Source of the DNA: a virus
DNA length: 38,839 nt
UHGV virus genome: UHGV-1367571
Strand: one strand, 5' to 3'
Shown: positions 7,892 to 17,952 of the stretch, in pieces
Layout of the letters: each line of letters begins with the position of its first letter
Position numbering within the stretch: position 1 is the first letter of the stretch
Position numbers and translations under genes: made by a program
Notes under the pieces: generated by a model
Told to the model about the DNA's origin: nothing
Seen by the model: the letters and a program-made list of their open reading frames with translations, nothing else
Databases searched by the model: none

Positions 7892-7920
7892 AGTATACCA
7901 TGGTTATTTCAGGTTGTCAA
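7892..7920 (-). promoter_or_regulatory. early promoter TTGACA-17-TGgTATACT with a tandem TTGACA box
   Basis: Consensus on the minus strand. Confidence 0.65.
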
Positions 7921-7949
7921 CTGTTTTTGTCAATTATTTTTAAACTTTT

Positions 7950-8656: not shown

Positions 8657-8685
8657 ATAATAATCTATAAAAAGAAAAAAGTCAA
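8657..8685 (-). promoter_or_regulatory. early promoter TTGACT-17-TATTAT with a tandem TTGACT box
   Basis: Minus-strand consensus. Confidence 0.55.
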
Positions 8686-8714
8686 CTGTTTTAGTCAACT
8701 TTTTTCAAATTATT

Positions 8715-10734: not shown

Positions 10735-10764
10735 ACTATATCACATGTCAAAGTAAAATGTCAA
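10735..10764 (-). promoter_or_regulatory. promoter TTGACA-18-TGaTATAGT. The -35 is one of four tandem TTGACA boxes across 10746..10792.
   Basis: Extended -10. Boxes spaced 13, 15 and 13 bp apart. Confidence 0.55.
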
Positions 10765-10861
10765 GTTTTTTCGTGTCAATTTATTTTGTCAATTATTTTG
10801 GCATTCTATTTTGACATGGAATTATTGAAATTTGGCTAAAAAAGGCATTTTCCCCTATTTT

Positions 10862-11657: not shown

Positions 11658-12962
11658 ATGAGTATTAAATTATTTGATCATCAAATCGAGCAAGTTAAAG
11701 AAGGGATTAAAGGTAAAAACTTTAATCAAAGTGAAGTGGGAACTGGTAAGACATTCGTAGGACTGACATTATTTAAAGAAAGTAAGTATAAAAAACTTTT
11801 AGTATTATGCTTGGCTGCTAAAGTTACCGATTTTGTTTCTGACGGTGAAAAAGTAGGATTAGAAATAACCGCTTTAAATAAAGGAACGACTAAAAATAAA
11901 GTATTATTGGAAGGCAAATCTGCAGTATCGATTAGTTTTGAGAGCAGTTGGCGACTAACTGACCTTAATAAGTGGGTGGATCAGGATACAATGATCTTAA
12001 TTGACGAATCACACAAGGTCAAAAGTACAACATCTAAAGTAGGTATGTTTATTAATAAGTTATCCAGAAAAGCAGGGTATAGTTATCTAATGACGGCAAG
12101 CCCAATTAGTAATGGTCGTTACGAGGATCTTTGGAATCAGTTGTTTATTGCAGGAATCTATACCGAATCATATAAGAAATTTAAAGATCGCTATTGTATT
12201 GAAGAACTTCAAGAAATGAAAGTGAGAGGTCAAACGAAATACTTTAATCAGATTGTTGGTTATAAAAATACCGATGAATTATTAGGACTATTAAAAGATC
12301 ATTCGGTTTATAAAGCTAGAGATATTGAGGATCACTTATTACCAGAAGATATTTTCTACTATACTAAAAAACCAACCATGTATAATAAGTTAGTCAAGAA
12401 TAGGATCCTAGAGTTACCTAATGGCGAGATCGTTGAGTATGATAATCTACCTAAGCTAAGACATGCTCTATTACAATTGTGTAGTGGTGTATTAGGTGAG
12501 ATTGATAAACCTTTACGTAAAGACAAATTAGAACGTACTGCACAGATCCTAGACGAAAACAAAGGCAATCGAGTCGTTATCTTTTATAATTACAATAGTG
12601 AGAAAGCAGCACTCATTAATCTACTAACTGACATCGGTCGGGTTTGGTCTGTCTATAATGGTGAGTCACATAACTTAGAGGAGTTTAAGAACGATCAAGA
12701 AGGAGTAGTGCTAGCACAGTATAAGTCTGCCTCAACTGGAATTAATGATTTTGTAATTGCTCATGTAACTATTTTCTTTGGATCATGTGACAGTAGTACA
12801 ACTTATATTCAAGCCAAAGGAAGAACGAACAGACATGGTCAAACTAAGAAACCTATCTACTATCATCTAATCGCTGAGAAGTCGGTAGAGTATAAAGTAT
12901 TCCATGAGTATGTACAGCAAGGCAAAGACATTACAGATAAGATCATAGAGTCCCTATTATAA
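11658..12962 (+). CDS. SNF2/DEAD-like superfamily-2 helicase
   Basis: Motif I GTGKT, motif II DESH, motif VI QAKGRTNRHGQ. Confidence 0.85.
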   Translation: MSIKLFDHQIEQVKEGIKGKNFNQSEVGTGKTFVGLTLFKESKYKKLLVLCLAAKVTDFVSDGEKVGLEITALNKGTTKNKVLLEGKSAVSISFESSWRLTDLNKWVDQDTMILIDESHKVKSTTSKVGMFINKLSRKAGYSYLMTASPISNGRYEDLWNQLFIAGIYTESYKKFKDRYCIEELQEMKVRGQTKYFNQIVGYKNTDELLGLLKDHSVYKARDIEDHLLPEDIFYYTKKPTMYNKLVKNRILELPNGEIVEYDNLPKLRHALLQLCSGVLGEIDKPLRKDKLERTAQILDENKGNRVVIFYNYNSEKAALINLLTDIGRVWSVYNGESHNLEEFKNDQEGVVLAQYKSASTGINDFVIAHVTIFFGSCDSSTTYIQAKGRTNRHGQTKKPIYYHLIAEKSVEYKVFHEYVQQGKDITDKIIESLL

Positions 12963-13342
12963 TTAGTAGGGTATCATGATCGGGGTATTGCTATACTAAG
13001 TAGGGGTAGTGATATAATAGTAGGGCTATTGAGTGGGGTACCACATATAGAGATAGGGCTATGTAGATAGGGGGTAGGGGAGTAAGGGGTAGGCTATAAT
13101 GGTAAGGTGTTGACAAGTAATAGTTAATATGTTAGTGTGATAGTATCTTAATGATTAGTGTAAATGATTATAGTAACTAATATATAATGAAGGTGATACT
13201 GGTTGTTAAGGTACTACAATACATAAGGATCCAATACAATCAATGCAACTAAAGATAATTAATGCAACCTAAATAAAAGTAAGGGGATCATAATATATTT
13301 TAGTAAGTGGATCGCAACATAAAAGGTAGCAACATTATTCTA

Positions 13343-13388
13343 GGGTAGGGGTATCTGGCAGGGGGTAGGGGTAGGGTGGTAGGGTAGG
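13343..13388 (+). repeat. G-quadruplex-forming tract GGG-TA-GGGG-N9-GGGGG-TA-GGGG-TA-GGG-TGGTA-GGG-TAGG (TAGGG-type repeats)
   Basis: At least six G3+ runs with 2-9-nt loops. Similar tracts at 13046..13093 and 12969..13006. Confidence 0.6.
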
Positions 13389-13767
13389 CAGTAGGTCAAC
13401 CAACTAAACACGAACGATAGTAATATAAATTTAAAAAATTATTCGTAAAAAATAAAAAATTAATTTAAAATAAAAAATAAAAAAATAGGAAAAAAATTTA
13501 ATTAAATAACAAAAAAATTTTTCAGAAGTCCAAAAATAATTTCAGAAATTTTATCCCCGAGTCCCCCCGCTTTCAAAAAAATTCAAGTACCCCCGACTCA
13601 GATTGAACCGCCCCCCATATTATCTTCACACAATTCCTCAAAATCTATTTTGAATTTCAATTTTACTACGACAGGTGGAGTACTTAGAAAATATAGTTTA
13701 TAAATAATCAACGTAACAAAGAGAATAACATAACATAACACGTTAATAATAATCAGGAGGTTTTTAA

Positions 13768-14217
13768 ATGTATATAGCGAACCCGAATGGAAAAATCATT
13801 TTTGAAAAAAGACATATCTTACTAGCAAACCCGAACGAGCTAGAGTTAACTGGTTGTTTAGACAGGATCAACGAGTTAGGAATTGAGTATATGAACTGGT
13901 TAATCTTAAACGATCAAGCAGACTACTTTTATAAATCACCAATCTGGTATAAGACAGTACGACCCGAGATATTGGAACGAGATAAGCATGAGTGCCAACT
14001 ATGCAAGCTACAGGGAAAACTAACAGTAGTCCAAAAAAGAGGATACGTCCACCATATCGCAGAGTTGAAAGAGTTCCCTCACGTGGCACTAAACTATAAC
14101 AATTTAATTACATTGTGTTACCATTGCCATGAGGTTACTCACGAAAGAGTTTTTAATATTAACAATATTCAGACTATTGATACTTTCGATAATTTTGATA
14201 GCTCGGAAACGTGGTAG
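13768..14217 (+). CDS. HNH endonuclease (terminase-associated)
   Basis: CQLC..HHIAE..N..CYHCHEVTH HNH/zinc-finger motif. RBS AGGAGG. Confidence 0.85.
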   Translation: MYIANPNGKIIFEKRHILLANPNELELTGCLDRINELGIEYMNWLILNDQADYFYKSPIWYKTVRPEILERDKHECQLCKLQGKLTVVQKRGYVHHIAELKEFPHVALNYNNLITLCYHCHEVTHERVFNINNIQTIDTFDNFDSSETW

Positions 14218-14278: not shown

Positions 14279-14620
14279 ATGAGTACACTCAAAGTACTAA
14301 ATGGAGATATTGAAGTTAGTAAAGAAGAGTTTCAAAAAGAAATGGAAAATATTTTAAGATCCAATGATAAACTTAATCCAGTTACGCAAACTATTGTTTA
14401 TAAAATAATTGACTTATACGAAACAGCAAAAGCAGCCAAAGAGGAAGTAAATGCCTTAGGTGTTTTATTAGATCAACCAATGGCGAACGGATTAAATAAA
14501 TTAGTTCCCAATCCTGCGGTACAGATCCAATCTGCAGCAATTGCAGGCATGAGTAAACTGATCGCTCAGGTCGAATTAGATACATTACAAGCGATGGAGG
14601 GCGATGATGATGACATTTAA
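14279..14620 (+). CDS. putative terminase small subunit (P27-like size, 113 aa)
   Basis: Position between the HNH gene and the large terminase. Acidic C-terminus. RBS AAGGAGG. Confidence 0.55.
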   Translation: MSTLKVLNGDIEVSKEEFQKEMENILRSNDKLNPVTQTIVYKIIDLYETAKAAKEEVNALGVLLDQPMANGLNKLVPNPAVQIQSAAIAGMSKLIAQVELDTLQAMEGDDDDI

Positions 14621-14918
14621 TTATCCCGAAACAATGGTTTTAAATGGAACTGAATATAATGTTAATTATTTAATGACGGATCCCGAGGCTCATAGTATGA
14701 CCAAGAACAATTTTATCCAACAAATATATACTAAATATGTGGCTATTCGGATCGCAGTAGGGGGAAATAGATGTGCTAAAATGTCCTTAGAACAGGTAAA
14801 AAATGAGTTAAAAACTGGAAAATATGACTCAGATTTAAGAAATATTCTAAAATTAAGCGAGAAAGATGTGGAAACTGTGCTATATATCGCAGAAAACCAC
14901 ATAAGTATAATTAGATGA
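14604..14918 (+). CDS. hypothetical protein (104 aa)
   Basis: RBS GGAGGG. ATGA overlap with the large terminase start. Confidence 0.45.
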   Translation: MMMTFNYPETMVLNGTEYNVNYLMTDPEAHSMTKNNFIQQIYTKYVAIRIAVGGNRCAKMSLEQVKNELKTGKYDSDLRNILKLSEKDVETVLYIAENHISIIR

Positions 14919-16654
14919 GTATGTATACACATAAAGTACCTTGGTTACCTAAAGAACACACCGTTATCGATGGATATGAGGACATGGCTAATTTTTACAT
15001 GTTTAAAGATTACGCCGATCTAATCGAGAGCGGTCAACAGCACGTAAGCGAGGACATACACAAGCTATTTACCTATTTATACAAGGTAGTATTAACATTA
15101 GATATTTACTTAGATGTAACTGCAACTGAGGCAGCATATCAAACCCCGAAAAAATATTTTCCACATGATCTTTTCCCTTGGGAGCGCTTTCTAATACCGT
15201 TCATTTTCGGGTTGCGTTTCAAGTCGGACGACACACTGGTATTTAATGAGTACTTTTTATATATGGCACGTGGTGCAGGAAAAAACTACTTTATGAGTTG
15301 GATCATTTTTGCATTAATTACAAATATCAACGGAATCAAAAAATATAATGTAGCTATTTCTAGCGCTAGTGAGCGACAAGCTAAAACATCATATATTGAT
15401 ATTCGAGAAGTAATTAAAGGGAACCCAAAACTTAAAAAGAACTTTCCAACGAGTACTCAGAAAGAAATGAAGTCGGCTAGTACTAACTCAGACTTTAGAT
15501 ACTTATCATCTAACGGTAACACAATGGACGGACAACGGTTAGGGGCTGCTTATCTTGATGAAATTCATGCCATTGTAGATTATGCCAGTTTGCAGGTTAT
15601 GAGGTCAAGTCTAGGTAAGATCCCAGATAAAAGATTATTCATCACGTCAACCGATGGATATACCAGAGGTAAAGTATTAGATGATTATAAAGACAAGTCG
15701 GACGATGTTCTAAATGGTATCCGAGGCGTTCATTTTGATGTAGCCAACCCTAATCATTCTAGGTTATTGCCGTTTATTCATCGAATCGATAACGAGAACG
15801 AGGCACGAACTGAAATAGGTTGGCAAAAAGCAAACCCTAGTATTTTATATAATGCTAACTTAATGCAGACATACAGGGAAGAAGTTGCCGAGATCGATGT
15901 GAACCCAGAATTAAATATTGAGTTCCATCTCAAACGCTTAAATTTTGTTAAAGAGGATACTCGTTTCAGGATCGCCAAAGTATCACAAATAGCAGCAACA
16001 GCGCAACGAGATATTACTTACTATAGGGATACTTTAGGAATGAGGATAGTTGGGGGAACAGTTGACTACTCAACCAGTCGAGATCTAACTACGGTCGGTA
16101 TTGTTGGTAGGTATGAGAATGAGTTCTATTTATTACAGCATTCGTTTATTACTCACGAACAACGACACCTAGGACAGATCAACGAAACATTACTACAAGA
16201 GGCTGAGGCTAGAAATGAGTTGACCGTTGTCAATGGTGAGGTTATCAGTGAGCAGTATGTAGTAAAATGGTTCTTGGAACAATTGGAACAAGGTTGGATA
16301 ATCGATACTATTTATATTGACCAATACAAATCTGCAGTATTAGGAAAAGCATTAGAGGACTCAGGTTTCATCGTTAAGCGGAACCCTACGAATATGAAAT
16401 ATGAAACTATGGTAAGTCCGTTAATCGATAGAATGTTTGCAAATGGTGAAATTTTCGCAGGAGATAGCCCTCTATTCCGTTGGGCGTGTAATAACGTTTA
16501 TAAAGAGGTGTTAAGTCGTGGGGTTCGTTATGATAAAATCGATCCTATTCGCAGAAAAACAGATCCGTTTTCAAGTTTCTTAGCTTATCTAATTGGAACA
16601 GTTGACGTACAAGAAACTCAATTGAGTACTAACTTTACAGGTATGGTAGTTTAA
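14915..16654 (+). CDS. terL: terminase large subunit
   Basis: 579 aa. Walker-A-like ARGAGKN. Nuclease-domain acidic residues in the C-terminal half. Confidence 0.9.
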   Translation: MSMYTHKVPWLPKEHTVIDGYEDMANFYMFKDYADLIESGQQHVSEDIHKLFTYLYKVVLTLDIYLDVTATEAAYQTPKKYFPHDLFPWERFLIPFIFGLRFKSDDTLVFNEYFLYMARGAGKNYFMSWIIFALITNINGIKKYNVAISSASERQAKTSYIDIREVIKGNPKLKKNFPTSTQKEMKSASTNSDFRYLSSNGNTMDGQRLGAAYLDEIHAIVDYASLQVMRSSLGKIPDKRLFITSTDGYTRGKVLDDYKDKSDDVLNGIRGVHFDVANPNHSRLLPFIHRIDNENEARTEIGWQKANPSILYNANLMQTYREEVAEIDVNPELNIEFHLKRLNFVKEDTRFRIAKVSQIAATAQRDITYYRDTLGMRIVGGTVDYSTSRDLTTVGIVGRYENEFYLLQHSFITHEQRHLGQINETLLQEAEARNELTVVNGEVISEQYVVKWFLEQLEQGWIIDTIYIDQYKSAVLGKALEDSGFIVKRNPTNMKYETMVSPLIDRMFANGEIFAGDSPLFRWACNNVYKEVLSRGVRYDKIDPIRRKTDPFSSFLAYLIGTVDVQETQLSTNFTGMVV

Positions 16655-16716: not shown

Positions 16717-17952
16717 GTGGGATTATTAGATTTTTTTAAAGGTTCTAGGGTAGATCGGGGAGTAACCGACCTAGAGGCAATGTGTCAAGACCTAGAGCAA
16801 TCATTAACCTATCGAAAGCTAGCATTAGAAATTGCAATAGATCTAGTCGGAAATAGTGTAGCTAGTGTCGATTGGAAACAATTCGAGAAAGAACAACTAG
16901 TAACGAAACAAATTTCGTATATGCTAAATGTAGCCCCGAATGAGTTAGAATCGAGTAGCGAATTTTTCAAACACTACGTTAAGCGATTGTTATATGATGG
17001 TGAAGTTCTTATAGTTCCAGATCGTACAACAGGACATTTATACGTAGCTGAATCATTCACTAGCGAAACGGTATCAAGATCCAAACGAGAGTTTTATGAC
17101 ATTTCATATTATGATGTTAGTAAGATGGATACTGAACGATATAACCAAGATGAAGTAATTCATATCGAATATAATAAAGACAATATTACTCGATTTATGA
17201 ACAGCTTTTTAAATGAGTATGAATTACTAGTTAAGTCTGCGGTAAGTTCGTATAGATCCAACAAAACTCGGCGATTCACTCTTTCTAGTAATATGTTCCA
17301 ATCGCAAACAAGCGAAACACAGCAGGAAATGAACGACATGTTCACAAGACAATTGTCTAAATTCGCCTCTAGCGACACAACAGCAAGTGTTTATGCAAAA
17401 GGTACTAACTGGGATATTCAAGATATGAGTGATAAACAGATTGAAAGTGCTAAAGATAGTCGGGATCTTATTAACGATGTTTTCGCAGTCGTAGCACAGA
17501 CTTATCATATTCCAGTACAAATGATTTTAACAGGTATCACTGGAACAGGTGCAGGAATCACAGATAAGGTAGTAGAAAATTACTTACTAAATATCGTGTA
17601 TCCAGTAGTAGCATTATTTCAAGAGGGCTTTAATCAATACAATTACTCTATTGCTCAATATAAAGGCGGAAATAGGATAGTTGCAGATAAGTCAAAAGTA
17701 CGCCTAGCAAACATGCAAACATTAGGTACATTTATCGCCTCAGTTTTCCCTACTGGTGCTTTATCATTAAACGATATTGTTACCGAGTATTTACAACTAC
17801 CACCATTACCAGATGAGATCGGCGATACACGTGTAATAACCAAGAACTATGCAACAATTGAGGACTTTAAAAACGGATTAACCGCAACAGTCCCACCAGT
17901 TCAAAACGGCGAAACAACAGCTGTTACAAATAACGATAAAGGAGATAACTAA
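16717..17952 (+). CDS. portal protein
   Basis: 411 aa. GTG start with RBS AAGGAGG, directly after terL. Confidence 0.75.
   Translation: MGLLDFFKGSRVDRGVTDLEAMCQDLEQSLTYRKLALEIAIDLVGNSVASVDWKQFEKEQLVTKQISYMLNVAPNELESSSEFFKHYVKRLLYDGEVLIVPDRTTGHLYVAESFTSETVSRSKREFYDISYYDVSKMDTERYNQDEVIHIEYNKDNITRFMNSFLNEYELLVKSAVSSYRSNKTRRFTLSSNMFQSQTSETQQEMNDMFTRQLSKFASSDTTASVYAKGTNWDIQDMSDKQIESAKDSRDLINDVFAVVAQTYHIPVQMILTGITGTGAGITDKVVENYLLNIVYPVVALFQEGFNQYNYSIAQYKGGNRIVADKSKVRLANMQTLGTFIASVFPTGALSLNDIVTEYLQLPPLPDEIGDTRVITKNYATIEDFKNGLTATVPPVQNGETTAVTNNDKGDN

Follow-up and report, generated by a model that had tools for sequence, protein, structure and literature searches.

The G-rich tract described here lies in UHGV-1367571, a viral stretch of 38,839 nucleotides (nt) that is referred to below as the window and represents the whole or a major portion of a siphophage genome. 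The tract sits inside an 805-nt non-coding gap (12963–13767), with the gene of an SNF2-like helicase on its left and the gene of an HNH endonuclease on its right. On our best reading, the element is a new, unusually elaborate variant of the phage cos/packaging region, and this region belongs to a cos-type siphophage related to Enterococcus cecorum phage vB_CECAV_A40 (A40); a G-quadruplex (G4) interpretation is possible, but it is not the best supported one. Specifically, we consider it an even call that the tract is one block of a conserved, ~650-bp non-coding cos/packaging region, in which the G-runs act as duplex recognition or architectural elements.

The packaging signals of HNH-dependent cos phages of Gram-positive hosts are poorly defined, and the marks of the cut site beyond a single small-terminase site are little understood. 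The clade studied here offers separable elements for such questions: ~16 G-runs in helical phase, an A-tract that is of fixed length and probably curved, and a C-run block with exact internal spacing.

Anatomy and conservation of the gap

From left to right, the gap contains G-run array 1, a promoter-like site, ~200 nt of AT-rich sequence, G-run cluster 2, an A-rich tract, a block of C-runs and the TCTTCACACAATT block (Table 1). This ordered layout recurs in all seven gap-spanning lineages that were compared (A40, IMG/VR 106111 and the contigs L155, L158, L213, L214/215 and L222), whose helicases are 58–81% identical to that of the window; the sequence between the blocks is barely alignable.

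Array 1 begins 6 nt past the stop codon of the helicase gene. In the window its runs are spaced by 13, 21, 20, 12, 21, 14, 7 and 9 nt from start to start, with a periodicity peak at 10.5 nt; across the lineages, the spacings cluster at 10–12 and 20–22 nt. The array of L214 is spaced by 22, 22, 22 and 20 nt and then by 11, 10, 12 and 12 nt, and that of A40 ends with spacings of 11, 11, 12, 10 and 12 nt. The periodicity power of array 1 is 4–8 at 10.5–11.5 nt in four lineages.

Cluster 2 has a nearly invariant core, AGGGGGTAGGG (13360–13370), which is unchanged in four of the five aligned lineages. The distance from its GGGTAGGG to the first C6 run is 200, 201, 201, 201, 197 and 207 nt in the six lineages with a dense cluster, despite insertions and deletions in the spacer. 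A second spacing is fixed as well: exactly 34 nt separate TCCCCCCGC from GAACCGCCCCC in three aligned lineages (TCCCCCCGC-N34-GAACCGCCCCC).

The region 13400–13560, which covers the A-rich tract, is 84% A+T and 57% A and contains nine tracts of four or more A residues. The 11-nt AA periodicity of the tract has a power of 6–10 in three lineages; it is 7.9 in the window, where 1 is expected, and 6.4 and 9.8 in two relatives. One block of the tract, ATAAAATAAAAAATAAAAAAA, is conserved in the alignment, and the DNA is likely to be intrinsically curved and easily melted. The four C-runs that follow are located at 13555–58, 13563–68, 13590–94 and 13611–16, and the ribosome-binding site of the HNH gene lies ~130 nt beyond the TCTTCACACAATT block.

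The G-runs are also constrained in their flanks. In the A40 clade, the G-run columns together with the two preceding bases vary at 10–15% (14% for the G-run columns alone), compared to 38% for the inter-run spacers of array 1. Most G-runs are followed by T and then by A (39 and 32 of 59 units, respectively). The helical phasing, the periodicity of the A-tract, the fixed spacings and the constrained flanking bases would be expected if a protein reads duplex DNA on one face and wraps or loops it.

The relatives carry promoter-like sites of extended -10 form, such as TGATATAAT. Because the corresponding site of the window failed a consensus scan, we infer its promoter-like nature from these relatives.

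The sequence-only reading had presented cluster 2 as a cluster of G4 motifs. The tract GGG-TA-GGGG-N9-GGGGG-TA-GGGG-TA-GGG-N5-GGG is present exactly as it was written there, at 13343–13384. Under the canonical rule (four tracts of three or more G residues, with loops of 1–7 nt), the segment 13361–13384, GGGGGTAGGGGTAGGGTGGTAGGG, is the sole G4 motif on either strand of the window; when loops of up to 12 nt are allowed, there are two matches, 13343–13384 and 13056–13089. The two highest G4Hunter scores (calculated over 25 nt, with a usual threshold of 1.5) are 2.32 at 13360–13384 and 2.28 at 13069–13093. Among 300 dinucleotide-preserving shuffles, 15 contained any canonical motif, and the maximum G4Hunter score was 2.16. 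Ten runs of four or more G residues per 440 nt were observed, compared to at most six in the shuffles. The density that had been called unexpected for a phage of ~35% GC is thus unusual indeed, since both the score and the run count exceed those of all 300 shuffles, and the GC content of the window is 34.8%.

Two further tracts had been named as G4-capable on the plus strand. One of them holds in part, as 13056–13089 qualifies with the longer loops; the other, 12969–13006, fails the rule because it contains three G-runs only, 10 and 17 nt apart. Minus-strand G4 potential had also been proposed for the C-runs. There the loops are 4, 21 and 16 nt, no motif is formed even with loops of up to 12 nt, and the G4Hunter scores are only -1.56 and -1.52. 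At the level of sequence, the tract is nevertheless what it had been taken for, a statistically unusual cluster of G4-capable sequence, and it is also conserved.

Six of the seven lineages have a canonical plus-strand motif in the homologous gap, and it occurs nowhere else in the 6–8 kb analysed per relative, nor on the minus strand of any relative. In L155, five GGTAGG-type units are kept and the canonical motif is lost (G4Hunter score 1.68), which suggests that the unit is kept rather than the quadruplex rule. In L214, the motif arises only from runs phased at 11 nt, with loops of 6–7 nt.

Table 1. Blocks of the non-coding gap and neighbouring genes in the window
Feature	Position	Strand	Basis
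SNF2-like DNA helicase gene, left border of the gap	11658..12962	+	Open reading frame; Pfam Helicase_C and SNF2-rel_dom; 78% identity to the A40 'DNA helicase'
G-run array 1, nine G3-5 runs of type (t)aGGGGta(t)	12969..13093	+	Sequence; found in every relative examined
Promoter-like site TTGACA-17-TAGTGT, weak in the window	13110..13138	+	Read from sequence
G-run cluster 2, tandem GGTAGG/GGGGTA units terminating in GTAGGTCA	13343..13398	+	Sequence; G4 motif 13361-13384 inside
A-rich tract, ~130 nt	13420..13550	.	AA periodicity at 11 nt
C-run block C4, C6, C5, C6; unit TA(T)CCCCGA(G/C)TC repeated	13552..13616	+	Sequence, alignment
GAACCGCCCCCC, candidate cos core	13605..13616	+	Invariant in window, A40 and L002, also in L158
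Conserved block TCTTCACACAATT, candidate small-terminase site	13623..13635	+	Alignment; analogy
HNH endonuclease gene	13768..14217	+	Pfam HNH; PHROG HNH endonuclease; PDB 5H0M HNH endonuclease, E = 2e-4
Small terminase gene, Terminase_4 / P27 family	14279..14620	+	Pfam PF05119; PHROG terminase small subunit
Large terminase gene	14915..16654	+	Pfam TerL_ATPase and TerL_nuclease (PF03354)
Portal gene, next after the large terminase	16717-17952	+	Pfam Phage_portal (PF04860)

Several further observations concern the blocks and their surroundings. In the A40 clade, a 220-nt AT-rich stretch between the two G clusters (L001 2040–2270, and the same stretch in L002, L158 and L211) is as conserved as the G-runs, with 15% variable columns. 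Its counterpart in the window is 13100–13340, with which it is barely alignable; the stretch may represent a promoter plus leader, or another signal. In the lineages with 58–60% helicase identity, arrays of (A/T)TTCACAAG units, 20–21 nt apart, flank the G-array/C-block on both sides (L214 4803–4950 and 5695–5870; L164 94–260; L222 2985–3130 and 3870–4100), and some of the L222 copies are inverted. The window retains a single TCTTCACA copy at 13623, where L214, L164 and L222 have their TTCACAAG arrays. Just 5' of the HNH ribosome-binding site lies the block ACACGTTAAT-A-AATCA (13725–13755), which is preceded in the window by an (ATAAC)x3 repeat and is conserved at 67–81% HNH identity in A40, L002, L155–L159 and L162.

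A candidate cos region and its relation to known packaging signals

The succession of helicase, 805-nt gap, HNH, TerS (small terminase), TerL (large terminase) and portal is the gene set of HNH-dependent cos packaging. HNH-terS-terL modules also occur in S. aureus, E. faecium and Streptococcus phages, whose TerL proteins are 33–40% identical to that of the window phage. Where the ends of such relatives have been mapped or annotated, as in IME-EF4 and phiSLT, cos adjoins the HNH gene, upstream of terS. The ends of IME-EF4 carry a mapped 9-nt 3' overhang (PMC4445525), and the annotated cos of phiSLT is CCGGAGAGGC.

Homopolymer runs are found around these sites as well. In phiSLT, an A-tract and then GCCCCCCTGCCC are located 30 nt left of the annotated cos. 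In IME-EF4, GGTAGGTC, GGGG, two copies of GGGAGGGAG and CCCC all lie within 100 nt of the mapped cos, and in P630 and E. faecium phage 4995_1, runs of C5–7 and G4–5 are present in the 100–130 nt upstream of terS. A GC-only cohesive end of 10 nt, GGCGGGGGCC, has been described for S. aureus cos phages of the P240 group (PMC5435737). IME-EF4 also encodes a homologous helicase elsewhere in its genome. Because no G-runs follow that gene, whereas G/C runs sit at the IME-EF4 cos, the runs track cos and not the helicase, and a tie between the G-runs and the helicase gene was rejected.

Ten contigs of relatives stop short upstream of the HNH gene, and at least four of them (L156, L160, L164 and L166) start in the last C-run or within ~12 nt after it; the L157 contig starts ~40 nt further on. 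Since contigs of relatives start there, we provisionally place the cut at or just right of GAACCGCCCCCC; as evidence of genome ends, contig starts are only suggestive. The small terminase of HK97 binds 15–29 bp downstream of the cos cut (PMC10370121). By analogy with HK97, and because L214, L164 and L222 have TTCACAAG arrays at the same place, the TCTTCACA block is a candidate site for the small terminase.

In the mechanism that we propose, a cohesive-end cut would be made at or just right of the last C-run (~13605–13622), and the small terminase would bind the adjacent TCTTCACA block. The G-runs, in double-stranded DNA, would either shape the DNA or offer a packaging protein contacts in helical phase; their partner could be the terminase, the HNH protein or another protein. 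Together with the bend of the A-tract, they might fold ~200 bp into a nucleoprotein complex that starts and/or ends packaging. The quadruplex capacity of 13361–13384 would then be a by-product of the close packing of many GGGG-TA units.

The HNH-dependent, HK97-like cos modules of Firmicute siphophages (S. aureus phiSLT/phi12/P630, Enterococcus IME-EF4 and E. faecium 4995_1) share the HNH, P27-type TerS, TerL and portal families with the window phage. Like the candidate region described here, they have a non-coding cos interval by the HNH gene, upstream of terS, with A/T tracts and C5–7 or G4–5 homopolymer runs around the cut, but a search for a cut site that aligns with the window gave none. 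Cohesive ends of 9–10 nt and GC-rich composition are reported for these modules. The interval is 805 nt in length here and 100–600 nt there. Different from the Firmicute modules, the window has ~16 plus-strand G-runs, in two arrays that reach 650 nt upstream, with helical phasing and a fixed spacing of 200 nt. The HNH gene also takes a different position: it lies downstream of the presumed cos in the window and upstream of cos in the Firmicute modules, being the last gene before cos in HK97, phiSLT, P630, IME-EF4 and IME-EFm1. In the window phage, the presumed cut would instead leave the helicase gene and the G arrays at the right genome end.

Functionally, the region most resembles the composite packaging signals of lambda, lactococcal 936 and SPP1/SF6. 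The cosQ-cosN-cosB region of lambda, with its IHF bend, combines short direct repeats and bent DNA around the cut, as do the other two signals and, on our reading, the gap. The lactococcal 936/sk1 cos contains R1–R4 sites with AATCT repeats (PMC6105707), and SPP1/SF6 pac contains three repeat sets (boxA/B/C), an intrinsically bent pacL and overlapping promoters (PMC4737164). Compared to these signals, the repeat unit of the window is GGGG-TA, the copies are far more numerous, the geometry is fixed over 200 bp, and the repeats are separated from the terminase genes by the presumed cut (they are on the cosQ side).

A number of observations weigh against a cos/packaging region. The A40 record starts elsewhere. 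The L211 contig ends inside cluster 2 and L161 starts inside the A-tract; from these breaks, extreme composition may contribute to assembly breaks. The break between L159 and L210 is explained by a probable 48-nt palindrome. Small terminases of the HK97 type bind a single 15-bp site downstream of the cut, and by this analogy such a protein would be no obvious reader of a 20-copy G-run array 50–650 nt upstream. A weight matrix built from the G-run units of the relatives places only one of its 13 minus-strand matches in the gap and fails to pick out the C-block as clean inverted copies. IME-EFm1, the ends of which have also been mapped, has no G-run array beside its cos. Finally, a replication origin would explain phased direct repeats next to an A/T-rich tract just as well, an array 1 that abuts a promoter-like site also fits a regulatory array, and the plus-strand G4 motif is retained in six of the seven lineages.

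No convincing alignment to IME-EF4, IME-EFm1 or phiSLT was obtained that would give the exact cut site by homology. A resemblance to the left end of IME-EF4 was dropped, as its orientation is wrong. The notion that the C-runs are inverted G-run units is unsupported by the weight matrix, though GGGGGTAC and GGGGATA resemble the unit.

The palindrome mentioned above comes from a relative with 67% HNH identity, represented by two contigs of the same Logan sample (SRR25288617). Its helicase contig, L210, ends with ...GGTGGAGGTCGCTAGATGGTCA, and its HNH-TerS contig, L159, starts with TCTGACCATCTAGCGACCTCCACC, the reverse complement of the L210 end. If the two contigs abut, they would form a perfect 48-nt palindrome where the window has cluster 2, the A-tract and the C-block, which would be a different solution at one site.

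Alternative readings of the G-rich tract

The cos, G4, origin and transcription readings, and that of no function, are not fully exclusive within an 805-nt gap. A replication origin, with the phased G-runs as iterons for a phage initiator and the A-rich tract as the unwinding element, is in our view unlikely. As in iteron origins (lambda ori, P4 ori/crr and plasmid iterons), direct repeats at one or two helical turns lie beside an A/T-rich tract, here of 130 nt and 84% A+T; the gap borders a helicase gene, the phage encodes a D5-type primase-helicase, and no other iteron-like array was seen in the window. The lineage of L214 has additional TTCACAAG arrays phased at 21 nt, which are reminiscent of the TGTTCACC iterons of the P4 alpha primase-helicase. 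In a variant of this reading, replication would be primed from a persistent R-loop, which the promoter and a G-rich transcript would give rise to; ColE1, T4 oriF and mitochondrial CSBII are examples of this. The relatives have promoter-like sites upstream of cluster 2 (just 40 nt upstream in L213), and the G-runs are on the non-template strand of rightward transcription.

However, the similar G/C runs of IME-EF4, phiSLT, P630 and 4995_1 are located in the 100–130-nt HNH-terS intervals, which are their cos regions, and the lack of G-runs downstream of the homologous IME-EF4 helicase gene speaks against an association with replication genes across the relatives. Different from iteron origins, the units of the window are very short (~8 informative bases), an initiator gene does not lie next to them, and the element goes with the packaging genes and the cos-type runs of other phages rather than with replication genes. 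The fixed spacing of 200 nt to the C-block and the place directly before the packaging genes are better explained by cos. Origin and cos could coexist in the gap, and the two readings are only partly exclusive.

Judged from its sequence, cluster 2 might instead fold into a functional plus-strand G4, in the DNA or in the leader of a late mRNA; we regard this, too, as unlikely. In the DNA, folding could accompany melting of the adjacent A/T tract, packaging or ejection, and the structure could act in terminase pausing or cutting, in end protection or in the control of late expression, analogous to the G4-capable pac1 of herpesviruses. The genome-highest G4Hunter score, above all shuffles, agrees with such a function, as do the occurrence of the canonical motif in the gap of six of the seven lineages with diverged flanks, its absence elsewhere in their loci and on the minus strand, the better conservation of the G-run columns relative to the inter-run spacers, and the A+T-rich tract that directly adjoins cluster 2. 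Nevertheless, L155 keeps the units without a canonical motif, and the motif of L214, with its phased runs and 6–7-nt loops, is what a helically phased array would be expected to yield as a by-product. The two bases before the runs are as conserved as the runs themselves, and T then A follow most of them; a G4 requires neither. Moreover, the substrate DNA of packaging is duplex. If the G4 reading is false, the cluster warns that a G4 motif in an AT-rich phage genome can be no more than the mark of an array of protein-binding sites.

It is quite improbable, in our estimate, that the G4-capable cluster is itself a conserved structural packaging signal, a quadruplex or a G-rich single strand extruded by the A-tract ~200 bp from the cos core. 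On this reading, the cluster would either direct the HNH-terminase to its stopping and cutting point, making it the phage equivalent of pac1, or protect the last-packaged end. This reading comes from a formal likeness: herpesvirus pac1 has an A/T-rich (T-rich) element flanked by G/C runs (G-rich), its G4 potential is conserved in relatives, and it is recognised by a terminase of common ancestry (PMC13595911). However, pac1 is ~20–30 bp in length, compared to an A-rich element of 130 nt and runs across hundreds of nt in the window; the two share no sequence homology, and a G4 role is putative in both. By analogy with lambda, the end packaged last would enter the host first. With cos at the C-runs, the 3'-ended strand of this end would be the G-rich one; RecBCD/AddAB-type nucleases read Chi-like signals in this orientation. 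Should the conserved G4-capable cluster act as a structure, it would be a direct parallel to pac1. To our knowledge, no functional quadruplex has been known before in a phage packaging signal.

The description of the cluster as 'telomere-like' turned out to be superficial. Short G-rich units (GGGGTA and GGGTA) are in common with telomeric G-strand repeats and, with cos at the C-runs, the right genome end would lie in the 5'->3' direction of the G-rich strand, as with a telomeric G-strand. Different from telomeres, the units are irregular, with run spacings of 5–13 nt and no regular tandem repeat; Tandem Repeats Finder detected only 2–2.5 copies of 6–13-nt units. The cluster is also internal, at least ~220 nt from the presumed end, the last 60 nt of the G-rich strand are C-rich, and there is no telomere machinery.

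Control of late transcription has, we think, a small chance of being the function of the G-run arrays, which would bind a phage or host regulator (an activator, repressor or roadblock) or, in a variant, form a G-rich pause or termination signal between the helicase transcript and the late packaging/structural operon. Array 1 extends from the end of the helicase gene to the promoter-like site, no plus-strand intrinsic terminator was found between the helicase and HNH genes, and the 220-nt inter-cluster stretch of the A40 clade is conserved like the G-runs. Packaging signals of SPP1/SF6 overlap promoters (PMC4737164). The position of the promoter-like site varies, however: it follows array 1 in the window and A40 but directly precedes cluster 2 in L213 and the HNH gene in L214, whereas the order and spacing of G-array, A-tract and C-block are kept. 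In addition, the promoter-like site of the window fails the consensus scan, and no regulator was identified.

That the tract is a compositional oddity or a decaying repeat in a long spacer, with no specific function, is very improbable: short G-run motifs carry little information and the trained matrix also matches 25 plus-strand sites outside the gap, but the layout, phasing and spacings are kept across lineages with 58–81% helicase identity, the G-runs vary less than neighbouring bases, and the enrichment is above all shuffles. A structured RNA or tRNA-like element was rejected, as the gap has no Rfam match at E <= 1, no tRNA and no stable or covarying fold; the pairing between G-cluster and C-block does not exceed that of shuffles in stability (fold z = -0.51), and its covariation term, +3.36, is unfavourable.

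Genome context and rarity of the clade

A40 is the closest database relative of the window phage. The structural modules of the two are ~75% identical in nucleotide sequence, and TerL and the helicase are 76% and 78% identical in amino-acid sequence, respectively. The plus-strand genes span ~11.2–31.9 kb, in the order endonuclease, SNF2-like helicase, HNH endonuclease, P27-type small terminase, an unassigned open reading frame, large terminase, portal, protease, capsid, tail and lysis; the minus strand carries the replication and early genes. The small terminase sequence has no match in the PDB. No terminal direct repeat was found at the window termini, and both ends of the window lie within coding sequence.

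The clade is rare; it comprises one cultured isolate (A40, from poultry), two IMG/VR contigs and a few Logan/ENA contigs. Scans of metagenome and genome contigs (metagenomes of the Joint Genome Institute and GTDB representative genomes) with the pattern TCCCCCCGC-N32-36-GAACCGCCCCC returned chance matches in GC-rich genomes only; this pattern thus revealed no prophage copy among the GTDB representatives. The 14-mer TGAACCGCCCCCCA gave 119 matches in IMG/VR, which were mostly chance matches and included one true relative.

Tandem units of 13 nt, TGTCAA(C/T)T(A/G/T)TTT, are present in the early minus-strand region of the window, at 7914–7941, 8680–8705 and 10774–10813. As TGTCAA is TTGACA on the minus strand, these units look like operator arrays or repeated -35 boxes of early promoters; one such array overlaps a promoter at 10764–10735 that agrees with the consensus at 11 of 12 positions.

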